DNA from: Leucoraja ocellata
Taxonomy: Eukaryota
DNA: 64,000 nucleotides
Assembly: GCA_036785375.1 (NCBI GenBank)
Contig: JAWMAR010000138.1
Location: 310,001-374,000 of the forward strand
Reading direction: 5' to 3'
Shown here: positions 754-54,482 of the stretch, one piece after another
Layout: the number at the start of each line of letters is the position of its first letter
Numbering within the stretch: position 1 is the first letter of the stretch
The notes under the pieces: model-generated
Told to the model about the DNA's origin: nothing
What the model saw: only the letters and a program-made list of their open reading frames with translations
Databases searched by the model: none
Position numbers and translations under genes: made by a program

Positions 754-3682
754 ACCTAAACTATGAGGAAGGGAACAGATTCCAGTTGATAATAAGGTCC
801 AAATTCTTTGGAGGACCCTTTATGTAGTAGACATAGAAGAGACAGTAAATGGCACTTAGGCCAAGATGTCACCTGTCAGACACAGAAATCAAAGTGGATG
901 CAATTATTTCTTCAGAATTATAGTGCCTCAAATGGGGCAGTGAGCGTAAAATTGGGAAACATGTGCAACAAGAGCAGCAGCTCTTAGAAAAGCTCCTGTG
1001 GCAAAGCAGGTAATGGTCAACATGATCATGACCTCCATGGAAAGAGTGGTCCAAGCAGAAGAGAATGGTCAAAGTTTCTAGTTATAGACTGTTACACATA
1101 TTAACAATAGTCGCTTGAAATTCTGAGCTTGTGCATGTATTGTCCATCAGTGTGGTTGAGGTAAGATGTTTGTTTTTGTGTCTCTTCCCTTAAGGTCAAC
1201 CCACATGCACCCATAATGATGTATCCAAAGCAGTGTTGCCAGTGATATTGCTACGGAAGCATTCATTAAATCAATATGTCAACAGTTAAACAGGACGATC
1301 TAACTCCTTATTTGTTTAAGCAATACCCTGTAGACTGGAAGATGTCAGAGCAGACTACGATCATGTCTGTAGCTACTCAGTCCAGAATACCGACATCACC
1401 AGAATTATATCATTGAGTATTGAGAAGTGCAACAGACTAGTTCAAATGCAATGTGGTGCTTTGAGCTACAATTTATATCAGTAAAGATGGAATTGGGCAA
1501 TGAACAAACGACGACATGATGCCCTGATTAATTTTGCAAAGTAATGTTTATCACTTATGGCAGTGCTTAGTCCAATATCATAATTTCACCTAGAAATGAT
1601 GACTAAGGCAATTCACCTTGGGTAAAAATAAGTTTTGCGCAATTCAAATTTGGAAAAAACGTGCCCCACAATAAAATATTCAGCATTTCCTTGTTCTCTA
1701 CCAGTATTTCTTCCATGTGCTGCTTCTAAGGGACTGAGGTCAGAGGAGTAGAGAGATGTTTTAAAACATTATGAACTTAGGTGGCCCCAAGTATCTAAAT
1801 AGAAACAAGGCAGGCTGAGTATTTTTCGAAAGGAAAATCAGCTACACCCTGATCCTGAAAAGATGATATCTTCTCTTTGGAGCTGAAAGAGTGTTCCTTT
1901 GTGTCATTGTTGTCAAGGGCAACAAACTCTTCAGTAAACACATTATGAAGCACAATGATATAAGAAACAATTCTGGGAGGGAATTTACATGGAGTTTATA
2001 TATTTCTACGGTTTCAGTGACATTTCTGTTCTATTTACAAGGACAGAATCTTAAGAACCTCATCGAAAATTCACCTCCTTGTATCAGAAATGCTTTATGT
2101 TCCCGAATCTATGTACGACATAGATATTCCAATCTCTCTCTCCTCTATCTGCCAGGTGAATGTTGGCCTCTATGATTGCTCCTGTGATTAGCCCAGAGAT
2201 AAATTGCAGATTTTTACACTTCCTTGCCCTGTATCCCAGTTTCCCCAGAGGTATAATTAGTCTCTGTCTAGCAGAGAAATTTACAGCCACAATCCATTAT
2301 TAGCCAGTGAATGGATAAGTGGAGCAATTGGTGGAATGGACCTAGAATGTATGACCTGAAGGAGCCAGTATTCATCTAGAAATGACAAATCAGGCCAGGT
2401 ACATCGACGCCTAGTTTTAAAGTGAAAAAACGGCTGTGGTAACTCAGCCCACTGAATCAGCCTGAGGAGGGTCCCAATGACACCTATCCATGTTCTCCAG
2501 AAATCCTGACATGCTGAATTATTTCAGCACTTTGTGCCTTTTGTCTATCAATCATCATCTGCAGTTCTTTATTTCAAATACATACATTGATAGTACCTTT
2601 GCTTGGTTATAGTGGACACTCGGCGATAGCAGACACCACTTCCTTCACTATGGTCCGTTATAACGAGGGTTTACTGTAAACAGATCATGACTGCAGATGA
2701 TCGTTAATAGACATAAGGACACAAAGTGCTGGAGTAATTCAATGGATCAGGATCTCTGGGGAACATGGATATATGACATTGGAATCCTTCCTCAGGCTGA
2801 TTCAGACTGATGACGAGGTCGACTGGAAAGAGAGATGGGAGAAGCAGGCGGTGCTGGTTAGGCAGGGGCCACCGACAGCAAGAAATATCAGCATGAGAGA
2901 GGGGAGGGAGCCCCACTGTGGCCGAGAGGGTTCTTTTGGTGTCGGCGGCTTGAAGAAAGCACTGACCCCAGGGGCCACAACGTCATGTTATGTCACCAGA
3001 CCATCTGGTGGGTGAAGGAGAGCTCAGCTCGCTAGTGTACCTCGCGAGTCGGGAATGGGGTCAGAAGCCAGGGCTGTAAACAGCAAGGGAGATGGTGTGC
3101 ACTGGGGATGGGTTGGCAGGTCCATCCGTTATATCCAAAAACTGTTATAACGGGGTCATTAAAGCGAGGGTTCACTGTATTATCTTTGCGAAACAGTTTG
3201 GAGAAAAGATTGAGAGCACAGCTGAAGAAGGAGTTTGGGAAGCAGCCTTTTTAAAGGTGCCCAGTAAATTAGAGAAGGCTTGACAGGAAGTTCAGAGTTC
3301 AGGAAGGTAAGAGGAAAATTGAACGGGTGGGAGGAGGGGTTGTGGGATGGTGTGGGTGTGTGGGGGGCAGGCAGTGTGGAAACATGAAAAACTTAAAGAT
3401 TAAGCCGACAAAGATAGAAATAGACAAGGCCATGGAGAGGTTTCAATGTTTAGATGTAAACAAATAATCATTTCGCGTTCCAGAGGGATCGACAAGAAAG
3501 AACGCTCACCCATCACAACGCCATCTGTGGCCGCTCAGGGAATTACAACTGAGCTCTCGTAAAATTGATTATAGGGGTGGGCAAACCATCAGTTGCCGGA
3601 ATGTCGGCATCTGCAATGAAAAAAAAATGTACTCTTGTGAGCGGTGCTGAGGATTGCCAGAATATATTTTTATCAAAAAACC

Positions 3683-3799
3683 GAGGTGGGAGATTGCAAC
3701 CTACACGCCCTGTTTCGACGAATGCAATCAACAAGATCAAATATAACAAGTTGACCTACAACTTTAGGCTGTGCACGGCATACGCAAGAAGAAGAAGAA
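3683..3799 (+). mobile_element. Short retroposed element (SINE-like), HDV-ribozyme-headed family; copy with internal deletion
   Basis: Flanked by a 9-bp direct repeat CAAAAAACC (3674-3682 and 3800-3808), has a (GAA)n tail, and is homologous to 4472-4604 with the same 5' start. Confidence 0.85.
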
Positions 3800-4471
3800 C
3801 AAAAAACCATATTGCCCACCCGCCCTTGTCTAAAAAATGAATCTTGGACCTAACTTATGAACCATATGGTAAAGATGGAAATCATGCTCATTATCGTAAA
3901 TGAGACAAAGAAAGTATTAAAAAATGAAAATCATCGCTGATCATATACATTAAGAGCATACCTTGACCTCTGCAGTTTCTGGGAATTAGCCTACTTAATT
4001 ATGTATTAAAACCCAAGTTAACCAGGTTATATCCACATAATGCATCAGATATTGGTGCATTCTAATTGTACTTGTTATTAGTGGCCTAAGCATGAAACCA
4101 CAGTAAGATTCTTATTAGGATGGCTCAATTAGAAAGTGAATAGAGGTTAAAATGAGTTGTAAAGAACCACTTTATCCTAACTTTCTTTTTTAATACTTGC
4201 AAAATGTGCAGAAATCCAGCTCAATGAACTTCAGTTTTGTGGTAAGTTTAATATTCCATTGTCTGTTTATCCAGTTTCTGCTGAATAACTATCACCATGG
4301 AAATTAAATGGTCACATTAGGTTCCATTTGCTAGCGAATTGCTGCTCCACTTGGAAGGACTGTTCGGGGAGATGTGTTGGGTGAGATTCTATCATCAGAA
4401 ACATCTTTCCATTCCCTGCTCTTCCAACATTCTGAAGGCAGAGTAACCATTGAGTCCCTGGTCCACTCTTC

Positions 4472-4604
4472 TTCTTCTTTCCTGTGGCGTGCACAGCCTA
4501 AAGTTGGAGGACAACTTGATCTATTTGATCTTCTCTTTGTGCACTAGTTGATTGCATTAGTCGAAACAGGGCGGACCACGTGAAGGTTGCAATCTTCCAC
4601 CCCA
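4472..4604 (-). mobile_element. Short retroposed element (SINE-like), HDV-ribozyme-headed family; intact copy
   Basis: 12-bp TSD GGTCCACTCTTC (4460-4471 and 4605-4616) and a (GAA)n tail on the minus strand. It is inserted into a Penelope remnant. Confidence 0.88.
4550..4603 (-). ncRNA. Minimal HDV-like self-cleaving ribozyme (predicted fold)
   Basis: GGGGUGG-AA-GAUUGCA-ACC-UUCACGU-GGU-CCGCCCU-G-UUUCGA-C-UAA-UGCAAUC. This gives a 7-bp P1 with a G1.U wobble, a 7-bp P2, a 3-bp P3, a 7-nt L3, a mini-P4 UUCG loop and a C-UAA J4/2. Confidence 0.8.
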
Positions 4605-5339
4605 GGTCCACTCTTCATTCTCAAACAATCACTCTCTTCTCAGGACACCATCCCGTGCTGCTGTTGGATATGTAATATCTGTTCTTTCGCCTCATCTCTT
4701 TCCGCAATACAGAGCTTCAAACAGTCCTACAAACTGAAGCAGGAAATCACGTGCACATCTTCCCATCTTGTCTCGTGCAATTCGGTGCTCCTGTTGTTTT
4801 CTCCTCTCCACTGGAGAGAACAAATATGGATTGTGTGATCACTTTGCAGAGCACCTGTGTTCAGTCTCCAGGGAACACATTAGGTTTAGTTGTCTTTCTC
4901 ATTCACACTCTGACCTAAATGTCAATGGCCTCCTGCACTGTTTTAATAAAGTCCAACTTAAGCTTGAGGAACAACACCTCACCGTCCACCTGGACAAATT
5001 GTTGCCTTTCAGACATTGCCAAATTAAAGAATAGTTGGCAATTTGCTTATTCTGCTTGTATAACTAGCTGGTGCTGCAGAAAGGTTGTCCATCTACAATA
5101 CTGCAGATTTTCTCTCTTTTTCACTTTCTCTCTCTGCACAGACACAACTTGATGTCTGCGGTATTTCCAGCCATCCTGTTCATCAGGAGACCACCAGGCC
5201 CTTCAAGCCTGCCCCATAATTCAATACAGTAGTGGCTGGTCTATGCTGACCTCAGCTGCACTTCTTTGCCAACTCTGACCTGTGTTTCACAGCTAGAACG
5301 TGCCCCTTCATTAATTTCTCCCTCACCACCTTACCACCA

Positions 5340-14756: not shown

Positions 14757-15990
14757 ATAAGATCATAAGGAATAGGAGCAGAATTAGGCCATTCGGCACA
14801 TCAAGCCTACTCCGCCATTCTATCATGGCTGATCACCAATACAATACAATACCTATAATACGTCTTGATGTTGGAGCCCCAGCGGGCGCTAGCAAGTCCG
14901 CGGCAAATTAAAGCCACGCCGGGCGTTGTAAGGCCCCGCTCTAGGTCACTCTCAACCCCGCAATTCGGGCGGGAGAAGTCGCCGTTGCCCCGCAAAGCAG
15001 TCTCCCACCGGAGACCCGCAAGCTCCCGGTCTCACCATCCACCGGAGTCGGGTCGCAGCAGCGCACCACCGCAGCTCCCCACGCTCCGAAGCTGGCCAGC
15101 TCCACGGAGGTAGGTCCACAGCTCCACAGCTCCACGGCTCCACGGCTCCATGACTTGAGCCTCCAGGTCGTTCCGGTTGGAGGTTGCTCCACGGCGCTAG
15201 GCCCCAACGGCAATGGAGACCCGACAGGGAAAAGTTCGGTTCTCCATGCAGGGAAGAGATTAAAAGTTTCCCCCACCCACCCCCCACCCCCCACATATAC
15301 ACATTTAAAAACCCGCTACAAACTAAACCCTCAACAGGACAAAAAATAAAGAATACACAGACAGACTGCAGAGGCCACTGCGACGTCAGTCGCGCCTCCC
15401 ACACACATGTTCTCTCTTTCCTAACCTCATTCTCCTGTATTCTCCCCGTAACCTCCGCACATGTACTAATCAAGAATCTATCTATTTTCTATCTGCCAGT
15501 CAGGGAACTAACTGAAAAATATGCACTGACATGTCCCCCACAGCTTTCTGTGGCAAATAATTCCACAGATTCATCATCCTCTGAATAAATAAATTTCTCC
15601 TCATCTCCTTCCTAAAAGAACGTCCTTTAATTTTGAGGTTATGATATAGATGCTCTAGGGGAAACATCCTCTCCACATCCACTCTATCCAAGCCTTTCAC
15701 TATTCTGTAGGTTTCACTGAGGTACCCCCACATTCGTCTAAACTCCAGCGAGTACAGGCCCTGTGCTGACAAACGCTCATCATAGGTTAACCTACTCATT
15801 CCTGGGATCATTCTTGTAAACCTCCTCTGGATCCTCTCCAGAGCCAACACATCCTTCAGCAGATAGGGTGCCTAAAATTGCTCCTAATATTAGAAAGGCG
15901 GCCTTACCAGTGCCTTATAGAGCCTCAAAATTTACATCCCTGATTTTGTATACGCCTTCTTGAAATAAATGCTTGCATTGAGTTTGCTTT
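14757..15990 (-). mobile_element. CR1 LINE 3' fragment with a nested GC-rich insert
   Basis: ORF 15500..15850 LERIQRRFTRMIPGM...LYSLEFRR. Confidence 0.85.
14837..15400 (-). mobile_element. GC-rich non-autonomous retroelement-like insert with (TATTG)n tail
   Basis: It interrupts the CR1 3' UTR after ATCATGGCTGATC, has a (CAATA)3 tail on the plus strand, and contains internal 8-bp GCTCCAC(A/G) repeats. Confidence 0.55.
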
Positions 15991-37409: not shown

Positions 37410-38280
37410 AGTTAAAGTAGTAAAGAAAAGTAAAGTAAACTTTATTGCCAATTCAAATAATGCAACAAGTAGTTACACAGAGGATTGAAATTGCGTTTCC
37501 CCATACTCCAAATGCGCTTGTAATAATTATAACACAGACAGACTATATACCAATAAAAATAGACAGGACATATACATTATATAAAATATTCAGTGTGCCA
37601 GAGTGTAGTAAAATTTTGAGGTATGTTATTAAGGTGCAATAATAAAAGGTGCAATATAGAAAAGTGCAAATGGCATACTGCAGACATTGAATTAAAGTTA
37701 TTTCGACAGTCAATTGGTCTTAGTTTGTGATGTTCATGGAATTTTCTTGAGTGTGTTGAGTAGTCTGATGGCCTGAGAGAAAAAGCTATTTTTGAATCTG
37801 GTGGTTTTGCTCCGCATGCTGCAGTAGCACTTGCCGGATGGTAGGAGGGTGAACAGTTTGTGTGCTGGGTGGGTGGTGTCTTTGATGATATTGGTTGCTC
37901 TCTTGCGACAGCGAGATTGGTATAAGTCCTGGATTGCTGGTTGGGGTGATCTGGTGATCTTCTCCGCTGTCCTCACCACTCTCTGTAGGGCCTTCTGGTC
38001 AGCAGCAGAGCAACTGCCATACCAGACTGAGAGACTGCTGGTAAGAATGCTCTTAATGGTGGTGAGGGCAGAAGGGGGGAGGTCGGCTCTCCTCATCCGT
38101 CGAAGGAAGTGGAGGCGTTGCTGTGCTTTCTTAACTAGGGAAATGGTATTGGTGGACCATGTCTGATCATCTGTGATATGCACTCCCAGGAACTTGGTGC
38201 TTTTCACAGACTCCACTGCACTGCCATTGATGGTGAGTGGGGTGTGTGCTGTCTGTTTCTTCCTGAAGTCCACAATAGAG
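37410..38280 (-). mobile_element. Rex1/Babar-clade LINE, 5'-truncated
   Basis: ORF IVDFRK...PL.ING..VE.V...KFLGVHI.DD.TWS.N...VKKAQQRL.FLRR..., ending LLPSG.R/C..SM...T.RFKNSFF..AIRLLN. The 3' UTR ends AATAAAG plus (TTTAC)n. Confidence 0.85.
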
Positions 38281-39019
38281 CAAATGGAGAGGTGGAGATA
38301 TTCATTATCAGCAGGCTGCCTACCTGACATGGTGAAAGTTCAGTCATAGAAGACAAGTACAGAGGTTAAAGTCAGAGATCATACCCCAAGGACTGGCATA
38401 CCATGCTGCAAAATGTTCAACGTGTGGAAAAGGTTACAGTGCTTTGAGCCTTGTATGACTCAAAGCACAGCACCCCATACTGCCGCACTCCCATCACCAC
38501 CCTAACCTCTCATTCACCAAACATAACAAGTAGGGTCCAGAAATAATGCCCCACTCCACACCACCATCCCCACCACACATATTCATCACTATTCCAAATC
38601 TCAATCACATTTCATAAGTTTCACACATTTCCAGCTATTCATCCATGATCATCCAGACACTCATTAATACATCTCCCTCCCTCCCTCTCTCCCTGTCTCT
38701 CTCTCTGTGTCCATCTCACTCTCCGTCCCTCTCTCCCTATGCAGTATAACATTGGTCCTAAGTGAAATAGGGTTTTGCACAAAGCATAATATGATTTCCA
38801 TTCTGTGCAGAAGTAGCTAATTACTCCATTCATATATTTGTTGACTTTAAACATCATAAACTGCCTCTGTTTTGTCTTCCATTGAAGCCGAAACAAAAAC
38901 AATGCAATGCCCGTAGGTTGCAGTGGACACTTGGACTTCTATCTGGGCCTGAGACCAGCATCAAATAATAAATCTATTTCACCTTTCCTTGCCAGTTCTA
39001 ATTCAGAGAACTGCACAGA

Positions 39020-45859: not shown

Positions 45860-48800
45860 AAGGCCTCCTCGTGCCACAAACCCTCGCCCCTTGTCTTTGA
45901 TGCCGACATAGCGGAGCGCTGGGCAACTTTTGAGTTGGATTTCACACACTACATTAATATCGTTCACCGTAACGATCCCGACGCCGTCAAAGCATCTCTC
46001 CTGCTGAACCTTGCTGGTCCTAATGCCATGAGGAGAGCACTTGCCTTTGCCTACAATCCCGCGGTTCAGGATGACAACGATCAGGTGCTAGTACCTGCGG
46101 AGTCTGGCAACGATTATGTTTGCTACGGAAGTTTGCTGAAATTTGTGACTTGCCCTCTAACCGCATTTTAGAGCGAGCTAAGTTCTTTACGCGGAAACAA
46201 CAGCCTGATGAGCCAGTTGAGTGCTTTATTGCTGATCTGCGCTATTTCGCCCAGAGGTGCCGATTTGAAAATATGACTGACCAGCTTACTAGGGATATTT
46301 TAGTAATGGGTATGCTGGATCAGAAGTTGTGATCGGAGCTACCGAGAAAGCCAGATCTTACTCTGACCGAGGCCATGCATGCATGCAGGTTGGCCGAAGT
46401 TGTTGACCCGCAGTTCGGACAGCGGGAGTCCGATAGCCGAGCTATCAATTTAACGGTTCTCAACAGACCGCATCCCAAAATAGACAACAATAGACCTGTG
46501 CCGCGGACAAGCTACCTCCCCGGCGGAAACGTTGTTAAAAAGTGCCCCAATTGCAATTATATGCATTTGATGCAGTCACAGTGCCCGGCTTACGGAAAAT
46601 CCTGCAATTTCTGCAAAAAATTTAACCATTTCTAGGCGGCCTGCCGGTCCCGTGGGAAACTTCCCCCAGCTTCTAGACAAGTATTAAACAACCTGGTACA
46701 AGTCGATAACGAGTTTGGTTCCCAGTCCTCTCTCGACACTGCCCACGACTCTGAGCCAATTAGTTCTCAAGGAGATGCTAGTGTATTCACACTCCTACAC
46801 GCACCTGTTCTACTCCCTGATCCATCGGTCCTCGTTACTGTCAACAATTATTCTTTCTCGGCTAAGCTCGACACTGGGGCAAAGGTCAATGTTATGTCAA
46901 CAAGCCTGTTCAAAAAAATTAGACTTAATGAGCTGCTTATAGGGGCGAGGTGCTGAAACCTGTGGGGAAGGCCACTTTCAATTGCGTGCTGCAGAAGTTA
47001 TCGCGGCCTCTCCTGTTCTATGTCCTTCGACCGCACCATCAACGAAGTGCAGGTGTTGCTGGATCCGAAGTCTGAGTACCCAGACCTGTTCGACAATGAG
47101 CTGGGCAAGCTACCACTCGTTTACAAGATCGCCACCGACCCGAAGGTGGTGCCCATGGTCCATGCACCACACAGATTGTCCCTCGCTATGAAGAATAAAG
47201 TTGAGTTAATGCTGAAAAGCATGGTCGCGATGGGAGTGCTGGAAGCGGTTAGCGAACCCACCGACTGGGTCTCCACCATGGTCGCCACCCTGAAAAAGGA
47301 CAAGAACGAGATACGGGTGTGCATTAATCCGAAGGACCTGAACCTCGCGATCAGGCGACCACACTACCCCATGAGAACGGTGGAAGATGTTGCAGCCCAA
47401 GTCGGCCAGGCCAGGGTCTTCTATGTCCTTGATGCCAAGAGCTCCTTCTGGCAAATACCACTCGACAAACGCTCCTCCGACCTGACAATGTTTGCCACTC
47501 CATATGGCAGATTCAAGTTCCTACGGATGCCATTTGGTATTAACTCTGCCAGCGAGGTGTTTCAGCGGTCCATGGAACAGCTGTTCGCCGGCATGCCATG
47601 TGCCATCATCGTGGATGATATCCTAGTCTACGGTAAGAATGCCGCCGAACATGACAAGAACCTCTGCTGGGTCCTGGACCGGGCCCGACAGATCAATTTG
47701 AAACTGAACGAAAACAAATGCAGATTCCGCGTCTCCGAAGTGCCTTACGTCGGGCATATCTTCACTTCTAATGGTCTGAAGCCCAACCCGCAAAAGACGA
47801 ATGCAATCTCCCAGATGTCAGCCCCCACCGACGTCCTCGGTTTGCAACGATTCCTGGGCATGGTCAACTACCTGGGGAAGTTAATCCCCAATCTCAGTGA
47901 ACTGAGCTCGTCCCTGAGACAGCTAACAAAATGACACTGCCTGGTCCTGGTTTCCACAACACCAGCAGGCTTTCGAATGGCTGAACTCTAAGTTGACCAG
48001 TACCCCGACTAAATTTCTTCGACCTGCGCCGTCCCATTGTTGTTACCTGTGATGCCTCTCGTTTTCGACTAGGTGCTGCCTGCCTGCCTGCAGCTCTATG
48101 ACGACGGATCGCTGTTACCGGTCTCGTATGCCTCACGGGCCATGACCGACACGGAGCAACGGTATGCTCAGATCGAGAAGGAGCTCCTGGCGGTGGTGTT
48201 CGCCTGCTCCAAGTTCAAAGACTTCCTCTTTGGCAGCAAATTCACAGGTGAAACCGACCACCTGCCATTAGTGACTATCCTCAACAAACCAATACATATT
48301 GCCCCCGCCAGGCTGCAGCGCATGATGCTGCAGCTCCAGCGTTTTGATTTCCAAATTGTTTACAAGGGCACTGAGATGCATGTGGCCGACACCCTGTCCC
48401 GTGCCCCACTAGCCTCCTGTGACCATCACCCCTACGAGCAGGAGGACATGCTGGTACTGAACGTCAACTTTGTCCCAACGAAGCAGCTACAGTGCCTGAC
48501 TGAGCACACCACCGCTGACCCTGCTTTGCAGCAGCTCGCAGCCGTTATCATGGTGGCCCGACAGATGCACCACTTTGCCCTCGGGTGCCCAGCCTTTCTT
48601 CCTAGTCCGCGATGAACTGGTGATCCAAGACGGTGTCATCGTCAAGGGCCACAAGGTCGTGGTCCCAGCCTCTCTCTACGATCTATACTTCAATGCAGCC
48701 CACAGCGGTCGTCCCGGGGTCGATGCTACCATTTCTCATGCCCAAGGATAATTTTACTGGCTCGGTATGGCCAAATACATCAGGGACAGAGTGTCCTCCT

Positions 48801-49600
48801 GTCCCTCCTGCAACAACATCGCTCCACACCAGCAGCGCCAGCCCCTTTTGCAGCAGCCGGCGCCTACCATACCCTGGACATCGCTGGCTGCCGACATATT
48901 CGAATGGCGGGGCAAGCAGTTTCTCGTCCTGGTCGACTCGTACTCCAACTGGTTCGAGGTGGACATACTTCCCTCCATCACCTCCGAGATGGTCATCAGC
49001 AAACTGCGCAGGCACTTCGCCACCTTCGGTGCCCCTGTCCGCTTGCAGACCGACAATGGCCGGCAATTCGCTAGCGCCGAATTCAAGGTTTTCGCTGCCA
49101 GGTGGAACTTCCATCACTACACCAGCAGCCCTGAGTATCCACAGAGTAACGGCCTGGCCAAAGGGCTGTGCAGAGTGCTAAGGCTCTGCAGGAGCAGTCG
49201 CGCCTGTCCAACTGCGATTTCTACCTGGGCTTGCTTAACCTACGTAACATCTCCTGGGACCCAACCATGGGTTCCCCTGCCCAGCGTCTGATGTCGAGGA
49301 TGACAAGACCACCCATGCCAATCGCCCAACAGGCCCTGCTACCCAAAGTGCTCGAGCCTGCCACTGTCCAACAGCGGATTGACCAGCAGCATGAGGGTCA
49401 ATGACGGTCGCATGACAAGTCCTGCCGCCCGCTGTCGCCTCTACTGCCCGGCCAAGCCATTCGGATGCAAACTACCATCAGCTACTCCCGCCTCGCGACC
49501 GTGGTCGGTATGGCTGACTCTCCCAGATCTTACCTGGTGGACTATGATGGGACTGTCTATCATCGGAGCCGTCAACACCTGCTGGCTGTGAACGAGTCGA
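45860..49600 (+). pseudogene. Gypsy gag-pol with stops and frameshifts
   Basis: Gag FFTRKQQPDE and a double Cys/His knuckle CPNCNYMH...CPAYGKSCNFCKKFNHF; protease KLDTGAKVNV (~46864); RT LDAKSSFWQ, RMPFG, IVDDILVYG; RNase H YAQIEKELLAVVFAC; integrase VDSYS, TDNGRQF, SSPEYPQSNG. Confidence 0.93.
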
Positions 49601-52919: not shown

Positions 52920-54482
52920 CAGTGGCTTTCAAAAGTATTCATACCCCTTGAACTTTTCCACATTTTGTCACGTTACAACCACAAACGTATTTTATTGGGA
53001 TGTTATGTGATAGACCAACACAAAGTGGTGCATAATTGTGAAGTGGAAGGAAAATGATACATGGTTTTCAAATATTTTTACAAATAAAAAACTGAAAAGT
53101 GTGGCATGCAAAAGTATTCAGCCCCTCTGAGTCAATACTTTGTAGAACCACCTTTCACTGCAATTACAGCTGCAAGTCTTTTGGGATATGTCTCTACCAG
53201 CTTTACACATCTAGAGACTGAAATGTTTGCCCATTCTTCTTTGCAAACCAGCTCAAGCTCAGTCAGATTGGATGGAGAGCATCTGTGAACAGCAATTTTC
53301 AAGTCTTGCCAGACATTCTCAATTGGATTTAGGTCTGGACTTTGACTGGGCCATTCTAACACATGAATATGCTTTGATCTAAACCATTCCATTGTAGCTC
53401 TGGCTGTATGTTTAGGGTCGTTGTCCTGCTGGAAGATGAACCTCCGCCCCAGTCTCAAGCCTTTTGCAGACTCTAACAGGTTTTCTTCCAAGATTGCCCT
53501 GTATTTGGCTCCATCCATCTTCCCATCAACTCTGACCAGCTTCCCTGTCCCTGCTGAAGAAAAGCATGCCCACAGCATGATGCTGCCACCACCATGTTTC
53601 ACAGTGGGGATGGTGTGTTCAGGATGATGTGCAGTGTTAGTTTTCTGCCACACATAGCGTTTTGCATTTAGGCCAAAAACTTCAATTTTGGTCTCATCTG
53701 ACCAGAGCACCTTCCTCCACATGTTTGCTGTGTCCCCCACATGGCTTGTGGCAAACTGCAAACGGGACTTCTTATGGCTTTTTTTCAACAATGGTTTTCT
53801 TCTTGCCACTCTTCCATAAAGGCCCGATTGTGGAGTGCATGACTAATAGTTGTCCTGTGGACAGATTCTCCCACCTGAGCTGAGGATCTCTGCAGCTCCA
53901 CCAGAGTTACCATGGGCCTCTTGGCTGCTTCTCTGATCAATGCTCTCCTTGTCCGGCCTGTCAGTTTACGTGGACGGCCATGTCTTGGTAGGTTTGCAGT
54001 TGTGCCATACTCTTTCCATTTTCGGATGATGGGTTGAACAGTGCTCCGTGAGATGTTCAAAGCTTGCGATATTTTTTTTATAACTTAACTCTGCTTTAAA
54101 CTTCTCCACAACTTTATCCCTGACCTGTCTGGTGTGTTACTTGAGCTTCATGATGCTGTTTGTTCACTAATGTTCTCTAACAAACCTCTGAGGCCTTCAC
54201 AGAGCAGCTGTATTTATACTGAGATTAGATTACACACAAGTGGACTCTATTTACTAATTAGGTGACTTCTGAAGGCAATTGGTTGCACTGGATTTTATTT
54301 AGGGGTATCAGAGTAAAGGGGGCTGAATACTTTTGCACGCCACACTTTTCAGTTTTTTATTTGTAAAAAAATTTGTGTTGGTCTATCACATAAAATCCCA
54401 ATAAAATACATTTACGTTTGTGGTTGTAACGTGACAAAATGTGGAAAAGTTCAAGGGGTATGAATACTTTTGCAAGCCACTG
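52920..54482 (-). mobile_element. Tc1-family IR/DR transposon, Passport-like, full length
   Basis: TA|CAGTGGCTT...AAGCCACTG|TA; ~200-bp IRs with internal AAAAGTATTCA direct repeats; the right IR carries an internal deletion. Confidence 0.95.
53132..54151 (-). pseudogene. Tc1 DD34E transposase (early stop and two frameshifts)
   Basis: MKLK*HTRQVRDKVVEK..., IIRKWKEYGTTANLPRHGRP, WSDETK, FQQDNDPKH-34aa-NPIE, ending GGSTKY. Very close to the Passport transposase as recalled from memory. Confidence 0.93.

Follow-up and report, generated by a model that had tools for sequence, protein, structure and literature searches.

A short retroposon with a 54-nt HDV-like ribozyme fold at its 5' end in Leucoraja ocellata is an internally deleted derivative of a Vingi-type LINE

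Introduction

The minus strand of the stretch of Leucoraja ocellata DNA analysed here (64,000 nucleotides, hereafter the window) carries a short retroposon whose 5' end seems to fold into a self-cleaving ribozyme of the HDV type. The locus raises the question of whether this fold is genuine, from which element it derives, and whether cleavage by the ribozyme could account for the way in which the retroposon has spread. A preliminary description, made from the sequence of the window, had proposed a "ribozyme SINE" mobilised by a partner LINE, and its main points are taken up below together with the explanations that compete with it.

Results and Discussion

The ribozyme fold at the window locus

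The HDV double pseudoknot had been proposed to form within 54 nt, and every one of its helices was found at the proposed position on the minus strand. The minimal HDV-like ribozyme occupies positions 4550..4603 (minus strand), with G1 at 4603 and the catalytic C44 at 4560, and is identical to the majority sequence of subfamily A. P1 is formed by 4603-4597 paired with 4574-4568, including the G1.U36 pair, and P2 by the 7 bp between 4594-4588 and 4556-4550, whereas P1.1 consists of the single pair C22-G37. P3 is ACC/GGU, L3 has 7 nt (UUCACGU), and J1/2 has 2 nt (AA). The position of P4 holds U38-UUCG-A43, which is one pair with a UUCG loop, and C44 is followed by UAA in J4/2. Hence, the nested double pseudoknot of P1, P1.1, P2 and P3 by which HDV-like ribozymes are recognised is present, as are the core features of the class (the G1.U pair, an L3 starting U-Y-C with G, and a catalytic C with adenines in J4/2). 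The absence of a P4 helix is the defining feature of the minimal (P4-less) delta-like ribozymes.

A descriptor that had been composed after the element was seen matched the 4603-4550 locus alone when both strands of the window were scanned, and on controls it gave one match in 150 dinucleotide-shuffled windows and none in 20,000 shuffled elements. The Rfam models, on the other hand, stayed below threshold: the scan of the window returned no family at gathering level, and in a search at E<=10 the HDV-F-prausnitzii model aligned exactly to 4603-4550 with 16 bits (E 1.8), against a cut-off of 44 bits. This model has a 20-nt P4 region that is absent from the window RNA, which does not reach the gathering score for an HDV-type model.

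In the window copy, base pairing is possible between the upstream target site duplication (TSD) and the 3' strand of P1/P3, and this competing helix may slow the predicted cleavage of the copy in its place. Regarding J1/2, a mosquito HDV-like ribozyme is described in PMC4908430 as showing little activity with 1 nt in this junction and more with at least 3 nt.

Insertion site and parts of the element

The window element is real and not a product of chance. A 12-bp TSD, GAAGAGTGGACC, flanks 4604-4472, with its upstream copy at 4605..4616 and its downstream copy at 4460..4471 (both minus strand), both based on the repeat match and the empty site. A related organism carries this site in its empty form: a run X5 contig passes from 4459 to 4605, skipping 145 nt, with 12 letters that fit both sides, and holds the TSD as a single copy. 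The predicted cleavage site had been placed within 1 nt of the TSD, and just one extra T at 4604 (minus strand, offset 1), probably untemplated, was found between the TSD and G1.

Behind the ribozyme, all on the minus strand, a remnant of the parent LINE 5' UTR (about nt 55-72) lies at 4535..4549 and, in the short RNA, is base-paired to the 3' UTR, and the deletion junction at 4515..4534, which is altered in later subfamilies, consists of LINE nt ~73-80 and a short duplicated linker. They are followed at 4481..4514 by the parent LINE 3' end, with its last codons, the stop TAG at 4500-4498 and a short 3' UTR, and at 4472..4480 by a (GAA)n tail like that on Vingi-type LINE families of the same genome. 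The preliminary description had assigned this whole part to a LINE-like 3' end with a (GAA)n tail, which is correct for 4514-4472, the ~43 nt that precede the TSD, but not for the remainder, where 4549-4535 is LINE 5' UTR and 4534-4515 the reshaped junction. The 3' domain (4549-4472, minus strand) folds with a closing helix between the 5'-UTR and 3'-UTR remnants and with a small hairpin that covers the stop codon. In subfamily B (L105:1546-1628) the closing helix is lengthened to 10 pairs, with z -3.96 versus -1.49 for the window copy.

A second, older copy of the family lies at 3683..3799 (plus strand), 700 bp from the main copy and in the opposite orientation, with its TSD at 3674-3682 and 3800-3808. 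Its fold is broken by a 9-nt deletion through L3/P3/P1. The whole window locus is duplicated at 98% identity on a different contig (L002), in which the second copy does not have the 9-nt deletion and the main copy has a P1 mismatch.

The parent LINE and the internal deletion

A search with an RT motif gave 330 sites (control 0) belonging to about ten LINE families, and forty stretches around the motif were inspected. Where their 3' end was visible, these families mostly had (GAA)n tails, and their ORFs have a Trp nine codons before the stop. None of these Vingi-type families has the ends of the element and they were rejected as its parent. From the position of this Trp in the related LINE ORFs, a Trp codon nine codons ahead of the shared stop was predicted and sought upstream of the element's 3' end, which gave 403 sites. 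These sites mark the 3' ends of a LINE with an ORF terminating in WMSTLDLQL-stop, after which its sequence continues as in the short element. A walk upstream from these ends reached copies beginning at the same ribozyme, and in the LINE copies L242 and L243/L244 both element ends lie inside one TSD. The long partner LINE sharing both ends that had been postulated was thus found, and its architecture is of the Vingi rather than the Ingi type.

The parent LINE is ~3.1 kb long and has a single ORF, starting at nt 116, with APE and RT. Its RT motif differs from the one used in the first search. The ORF is decayed, and the genome copies examined included no parent in which it was intact. APE and RT domains were recognised in pieces of this ORF, which is colinear with an intact database protein of 1019 aa at mostly 50-75% identity. 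No match to RNase H was found in this intact relative, and the intact relatives of the parent protein carry the Pfam families PF03372, PF14529 and PF00078 and no RNase H family.

Concerning the clade, the RT motif DL[ST][AS]AYDT and a C-terminal CxC..H..C knuckle, which we take to be Vingi signatures, are both present in the parent. Furthermore, the parent shows the compact single ORF with APE and RT and without RNase H that is described as the Vingi architecture (PMC13708176). No database protein match, PDB and the protein atlas included, carries a clade name. RTE elements have the same domain list (single ORF, no RNase H), and the name Vingi is a probable assignment based on architecture and on these motifs.

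The short element is an internal-deletion (bipartite) derivative of this Vingi-type LINE, as both of its ends come from one autonomous LINE and the interior is missing. In the founder subfamily, LINE nt 1-80 are joined through a 13-nt linker to the final ~47 nt. A pattern from LINE nt 54-76 has 613 sites in the genome; the first 30 of these loci include 21 founder-type short copies, 2 full-length LINE copies, 3 inverted 5' pieces on LINE 3' fragments and 2 loci (one insertion) with 5' pieces without a visible partner. Internal deletions of the parent arose more than once: L280 and L281, the other 2 of the 30 loci (one insertion), contain a separate two-part copy, made of LINE nt 1 to ~92 and the 3' end, with its own TSD and a junction unlike that of the founder. 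The TSDs, the simple tail, the many loci and the empty site are those of a unit that spreads through RNA. A long-range helix between the 5' and 3' ends of the full-length LINE RNA was also considered and is possible, but 14 of 83 control windows scored at least as well and it was set aside.

The proposed "ribozyme SINE" is therefore ribozyme-headed and LINE-partnered, as had been said, but it is an internal-deletion derivative of a LINE and not a true SINE. We give hardly any credence to the explanation that it is a Pol III SINE after all, with a tRNA-, 5S- or 7SL-derived head and only an apparent ribozyme. Such an element would be short, very abundant and share its tail with a LINE, as this one does, and TTCGA at nt 39-43 resembles part of a B box. 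However, the head derives from the 5' end of the LINE itself, neither a tRNA nor an Rfam family was found, and an A-box search with up to 2 mismatches gave no match inside the element except one that overlaps the tail and TSD. A strict SINE, with a tRNA, 5S, 7SL or snRNA head and a Pol III promoter, is excluded by the 5' end shared with the LINE.

Copy number, 5' ends and the proposed route of insertion

The element is 135 nt long. Exact matches to two 28-mers, one from the ribozyme core and one from the 3' half, were counted in the 3.44 Gb assembly and numbered 4,021 and 3,859, respectively. Both counts are lower bounds that include some loci repeated by the assembly, and reversed control 28-mers gave 0 occurrences. 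The high copy number expected from a genome-wide search was thus obtained: the family has more than 4,000 copies, and its 5' and 3' 28-mers are about equally common. Divergence from the subfamily majority is about 2% and 5% in the two main subfamilies, the figure of 2% being biased low. One of the insertions sits in a ~2-kb tandem repeat of at least 15 units (L122-L130, G000:C1:19.26-19.43 Mb).

The 5' ends proved as uniform as had been anticipated. Among 60 distinct insertions, part of which were selected by full-length score after 8 matches had been skipped (3 without anchor, 5 partial), the TSD ended exactly at G1 in 47, one base before it in 7, and two or three bases before it in 3, and was not found in the other 3. 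Its length was 10-13 bp in 50 of the 57 insertions with a TSD. An unbiased set comprised 40 of the first 47 copies listed for the 3' pattern alone (the 7 left out had already been sampled and were full length), and five pairs in it are the same insertion twice. The start of the ribozyme was reached in 36 of these 40 copies picked by their 3' half, and 4 were truncated; the TSD ended at G1 in 21, 1-3 nt off in 8 and 6 nt off in 1, and in the other 10 no TSD was identified. Moreover, contig ends accumulate at 4603 and 4604 in all four public runs (4/4), among the matches listed. The base before G1 was T in 40, C in 9, A in 9 and G in 2 of the 60 insertions, counts that are partly biased by the query, and T in 14, C in 6 and G in 1 of 21 in the unbiased set.

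Of 36 unbiased copies, 13 had all 18 pairs and every core base intact, the rest carrying damage, and C44 was retained in 33 of the 36. About one third of the sampled copies thus look intact, judging from their bases, and could cut host transcripts. A lower divergence in the ribozyme than elsewhere was discounted, since many copies had been selected on the ribozyme part.

The best explanation of these data, in which we have good confidence, is that a read-through RNA made by Pol II is cut at G1 by the ribozyme, bound by the protein of the parent and inserted by target-primed reverse transcription (TPRT). Copies would be transcribed by RNA polymerase II, mostly within longer transcripts, and the HDV-like ribozyme would cut 5' of G1 to leave a defined, uncapped and folded 5' end. 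The APE/RT protein of the LINE would then bind the 3' end and the (GAA)n tail, copy the RNA by target-primed reverse transcription and join the copy at G1. With less certainty, the protein might also hold the 5' domain near the target, which would create a hot spot at nt 70-81 where template jumps would give two-part elements and second-strand priming would give inverted 5' pieces.

Sharp 5' ends alone are no proof of cleavage, because full-length insertion is also usual without a ribozyme, as in about 80% of Alu insertions (PMC2912911). They are equally compatible with an element of the same origin in which an internal Pol II promoter within nt 1-80 starts at G1 and so defines the 5' end. In that case the fold would be a back-up only, or a protein-binding or protective structure, as in the dual role of L1Tc Pr77. 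We consider this unlikely. Copying of a cap is expected to add G at the junction, and the extra junction bases are mostly T, which argues against a start at G1. The element had been proposed to be promoter-less; there is, however, a precedent for an internal promoter in the 77 nt of L1Tc Pr77, which are ribozyme and internal promoter at once (PMC3383444; PMC8256844), and Kojima 2018 regards bipartite LINEs as very likely Pol II transcripts (PMC5786205).

Conservation in masters, a second family and distant relatives

Along the master lineage the ribozyme changed at three places: A32G keeps its pair, G8A lies in J1/2, and U45G is the free base of J4/2. These three parent-to-master changes lie at tolerant places of the ribozyme, which probably came from the parent and has remained intact across three later master lineages.

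A second Vingi-type family of the genome, family H, has its own two-part derivative of ~200 nt, headed by an HDV fold with a 5-bp P4 at the position where the first family has U38-UUCG-A43. This derivative has several hundred copies, the 716 pattern matches including mutated copies of the first family. Its short copies were found in L327, L328, L331, L332, L336, L337, L339, L340 and L342, and its parent in L092, L141 and L335. Between the first family and family H, both sides have changed in 7 of 18 pairs (P1 3/7, P2 4/7), and 96.4% of cells are paired, versus 31-46% in slid controls. The P1/P2 covariation anticipated in the preliminary description is in this sense present, with pairs conserved and covarying, as one contrast between two lineages in which the count of double-changed pairs was reached by 207 of 500 shuffles.

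Parent-like proteins are also encoded at 77 metagenome loci, 27 of which have an N-terminal match and 23 of these enough flank. A complete HDV fold precedes the ORF in 11 of the 23 relatives (8 distinct), versus 1 when the reverse strand was read and 0.1 in shuffled sequences, and the TSD ends at or beside G1 in L365, L370, L377 and L378. The catalytic C and the J4/2 adenines are retained in the first family, in family H and in the 8 distinct distant elements, and this retention speaks against an internal promoter as what sets the 5' end. The opposite case is a Vingi-type family (L084, L086, L341) with P1, P3, L3 and P1.1 but no catalytic C in 3/3 copies; its 5' end may be a dead or atypical ribozyme, and it is the kind of structure that would be kept if the internal promoter set the 5' end.

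The ribozyme could also be active in the parent LINE and a mere passenger in the short element, its 54-nt form being weak or misfolded and the copies coming from a few masters with a host promoter ending near G1. The minimal P4, the 2-nt J1/2 and the one-pair P1.1 would fit such a passenger, as would the damage in most copies and the folding of the 54-mer alone, which equals that of shuffles when the pseudoknots are left out (z -0.04). But the parent LINE has the same 54-nt form, so that its size is no handicap specific to the short element. In addition, at least three successive masters have kept the core and the 5' boundary, which would hardly result from separate host promoters. A mere passenger is thus very improbable.

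Inverted 5' pieces

The survey of parent-LINE insertions covered 66 distinct insertions at 90 loci, with the ambiguous groups L228/229/231/235 and L239/240 left out of the inversion count. An inverted piece of the LINE 5' end was joined to a downstream fragment in 10/66, and 4/66 had an ordinary internal inversion. Seven of the ten inverted 5' pieces start at nt 70-81, the same place as the deletion junction of the founder. Among the insertions selected by their 3' part (n=47), there were 7 inverted 5' pieces versus 1 ordinary inversion. The inverted-piece loci, which are truncated copies of the parent LINE, are L153, L165, L166, L183, L190, L192, L193, L213/L252, L227/L248, L237/L253, L257 and L266, the last of which has a clean 12-bp TSD with short microhomology, as predicted by the twin-priming model (PMC2912911). 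Inverted pieces reach nt 116, 225 and 358, and their source must therefore be LINE RNA. Apparent inverted pieces at reference nt 2618-2716 were dropped as an unrelated repeat inside the reference copy.

This pattern suggests, more weakly than the cleavage itself, that the ribozyme end is kept close to the second nick by the LINE protein. Part of it may be explained by the A-rich, unpaired nt 70-81 together with the preference for T at the TSD end (14/21).

A possible link to the mammalian CPEB3 ribozyme

The ribozyme at L370:2617-2689 (plus strand) reached 55.6 bits (E 1.9e-12) on the Rfam model of the mammalian CPEB3 ribozyme (RF00622), for which the cut-off is 35, and was the only match above cut-off among 13 sources scored with Rfam. 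It agrees with the CPEB3 consensus in 35 of the first 38 bases, and P1, P2 and P3 are identical. This ribozyme heads a TSD-flanked Vingi-type element in a metagenome contig, and the same insertion is found in L371 and L372. The window copy gave no score on the CPEB3 model in a search at E<=10. The CPEB3 ribozyme shares with the window ribozyme the one-pair type of P1.1 and, in the Rfam consensus, the same 7-nt L3; unlike the window family, it is a single copy in an intron and has a P4 helix.

The match of L370 hints at a retrotransposon origin of the mammalian CPEB3 ribozyme, with convergence as an alternative. Given such an origin, the mammalian ribozyme would be the stranded 5' end of an L370-like Vingi-type element. 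L370 makes this origin testable.

Comparison with known systems

The internally deleted LINE derivative is a known kind of element and not a new class of SINE, being comparable to R2 SIDEs, NARTc/RIME and the derivatives of Vingi-1_EE. In R2 SIDEs of Drosophila, too, an internal deletion has brought a 5' HDV-like ribozyme next to a LINE 3' end, and they spread by TPRT in trans (PMC3414825), a mode of spread that would also apply here. R2 is described there as site-specific for rDNA, with a restriction-like endonuclease, rare copies and a large ribozyme (PMC3414825), whereas the window family is dispersed, of the APE type, present in more than 4,000 copies and headed by a 54-nt ribozyme. In trypanosomatids, NARTc/RIME/SIDER (L1Tc/ingi) are short two-part elements with a 77-nt HDV-like ribozyme at their head and TSDs (PMC4035085; PMC3383444). 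L1Tc/ingi, the sister clade of Vingi, belongs to protist hosts, and activity and promoter function have been tested there (PMC4035085; PMC3383444). The window family differs from them in its animal host, a parent without RNase H, the (GAA)n tail and the lack of a P4 helix.

Vingi LINEs such as Vingi-1_EE share with the parent the compact ORF with APE and RT and no RNase H, and they too have two-part derivatives (PMC5786205; PMC13708176). As to the ribozyme itself, minimal delta-like/theta ribozymes have no P4 either, their catalytic C comes first in J4/2, and their cleavage site lies at the edge of a functional RNA (PMC10879173). Nearly 99% of them are reported from tailed phages, beside tRNAs (PMC10879173), whereas the one described here heads an animal retroposon. 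Some non-autonomous animal SINEs are mentioned, without names, as using HDV-like ribozymes (PMC6765202), and the SINEs described from the elephant shark are other, L2-partnered ones (PMC5499810).

No earlier report of the window family or of Vingi ribozymes was found in the literature searched. As far as these searches reach, the ribozymes on Vingi-type LINEs, the P4-less ribozyme in an animal genome, the inverted 5' pieces that begin at nt 70-81 and the scoring of a Vingi-type ribozyme above the Rfam threshold for CPEB3 are new. Vingi-type LINEs hence join the ribozyme-bearing clades, and an HDV-like ribozyme without P4, a form hitherto described almost exclusively from gut phages, is now seen at thousands of loci of an animal genome. 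Furthermore, the element is a natural minimal template of 135 nt for a LINE clade that is entering RNA-based gene-insertion tools. Vingi-1 templates with native 5' and 3' UTRs are described in PMC13708176, in which ribozymes are discussed for R2 only. The inversion hot spot also makes testable why only some clades yield two-part elements, a question left open in PMC5786205.

A broader proposal, which we put forward only tentatively, is that ribozymes head Vingi-type LINEs throughout animals and have two functions, freeing the RNA and being held by the protein beside the second nick. If this were true, it would explain why priming and jumping are so frequent at nt 70-81, immediately past the ribozyme domain, and also why two-part elements arise only from ribozyme-bearing clades. 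The window element would then be the smallest self-processing retroposon in an animal.

Other mobile elements in the window

Further decayed mobile elements are located at 46957-49291 (+), 53132-53842 (-), 37734-38339 (-) and 15500-15871 (-) of the window. The types among these four are an RT/integrase-bearing LTR-type element, a Tc1-like DDE transposase and LINE fragments.
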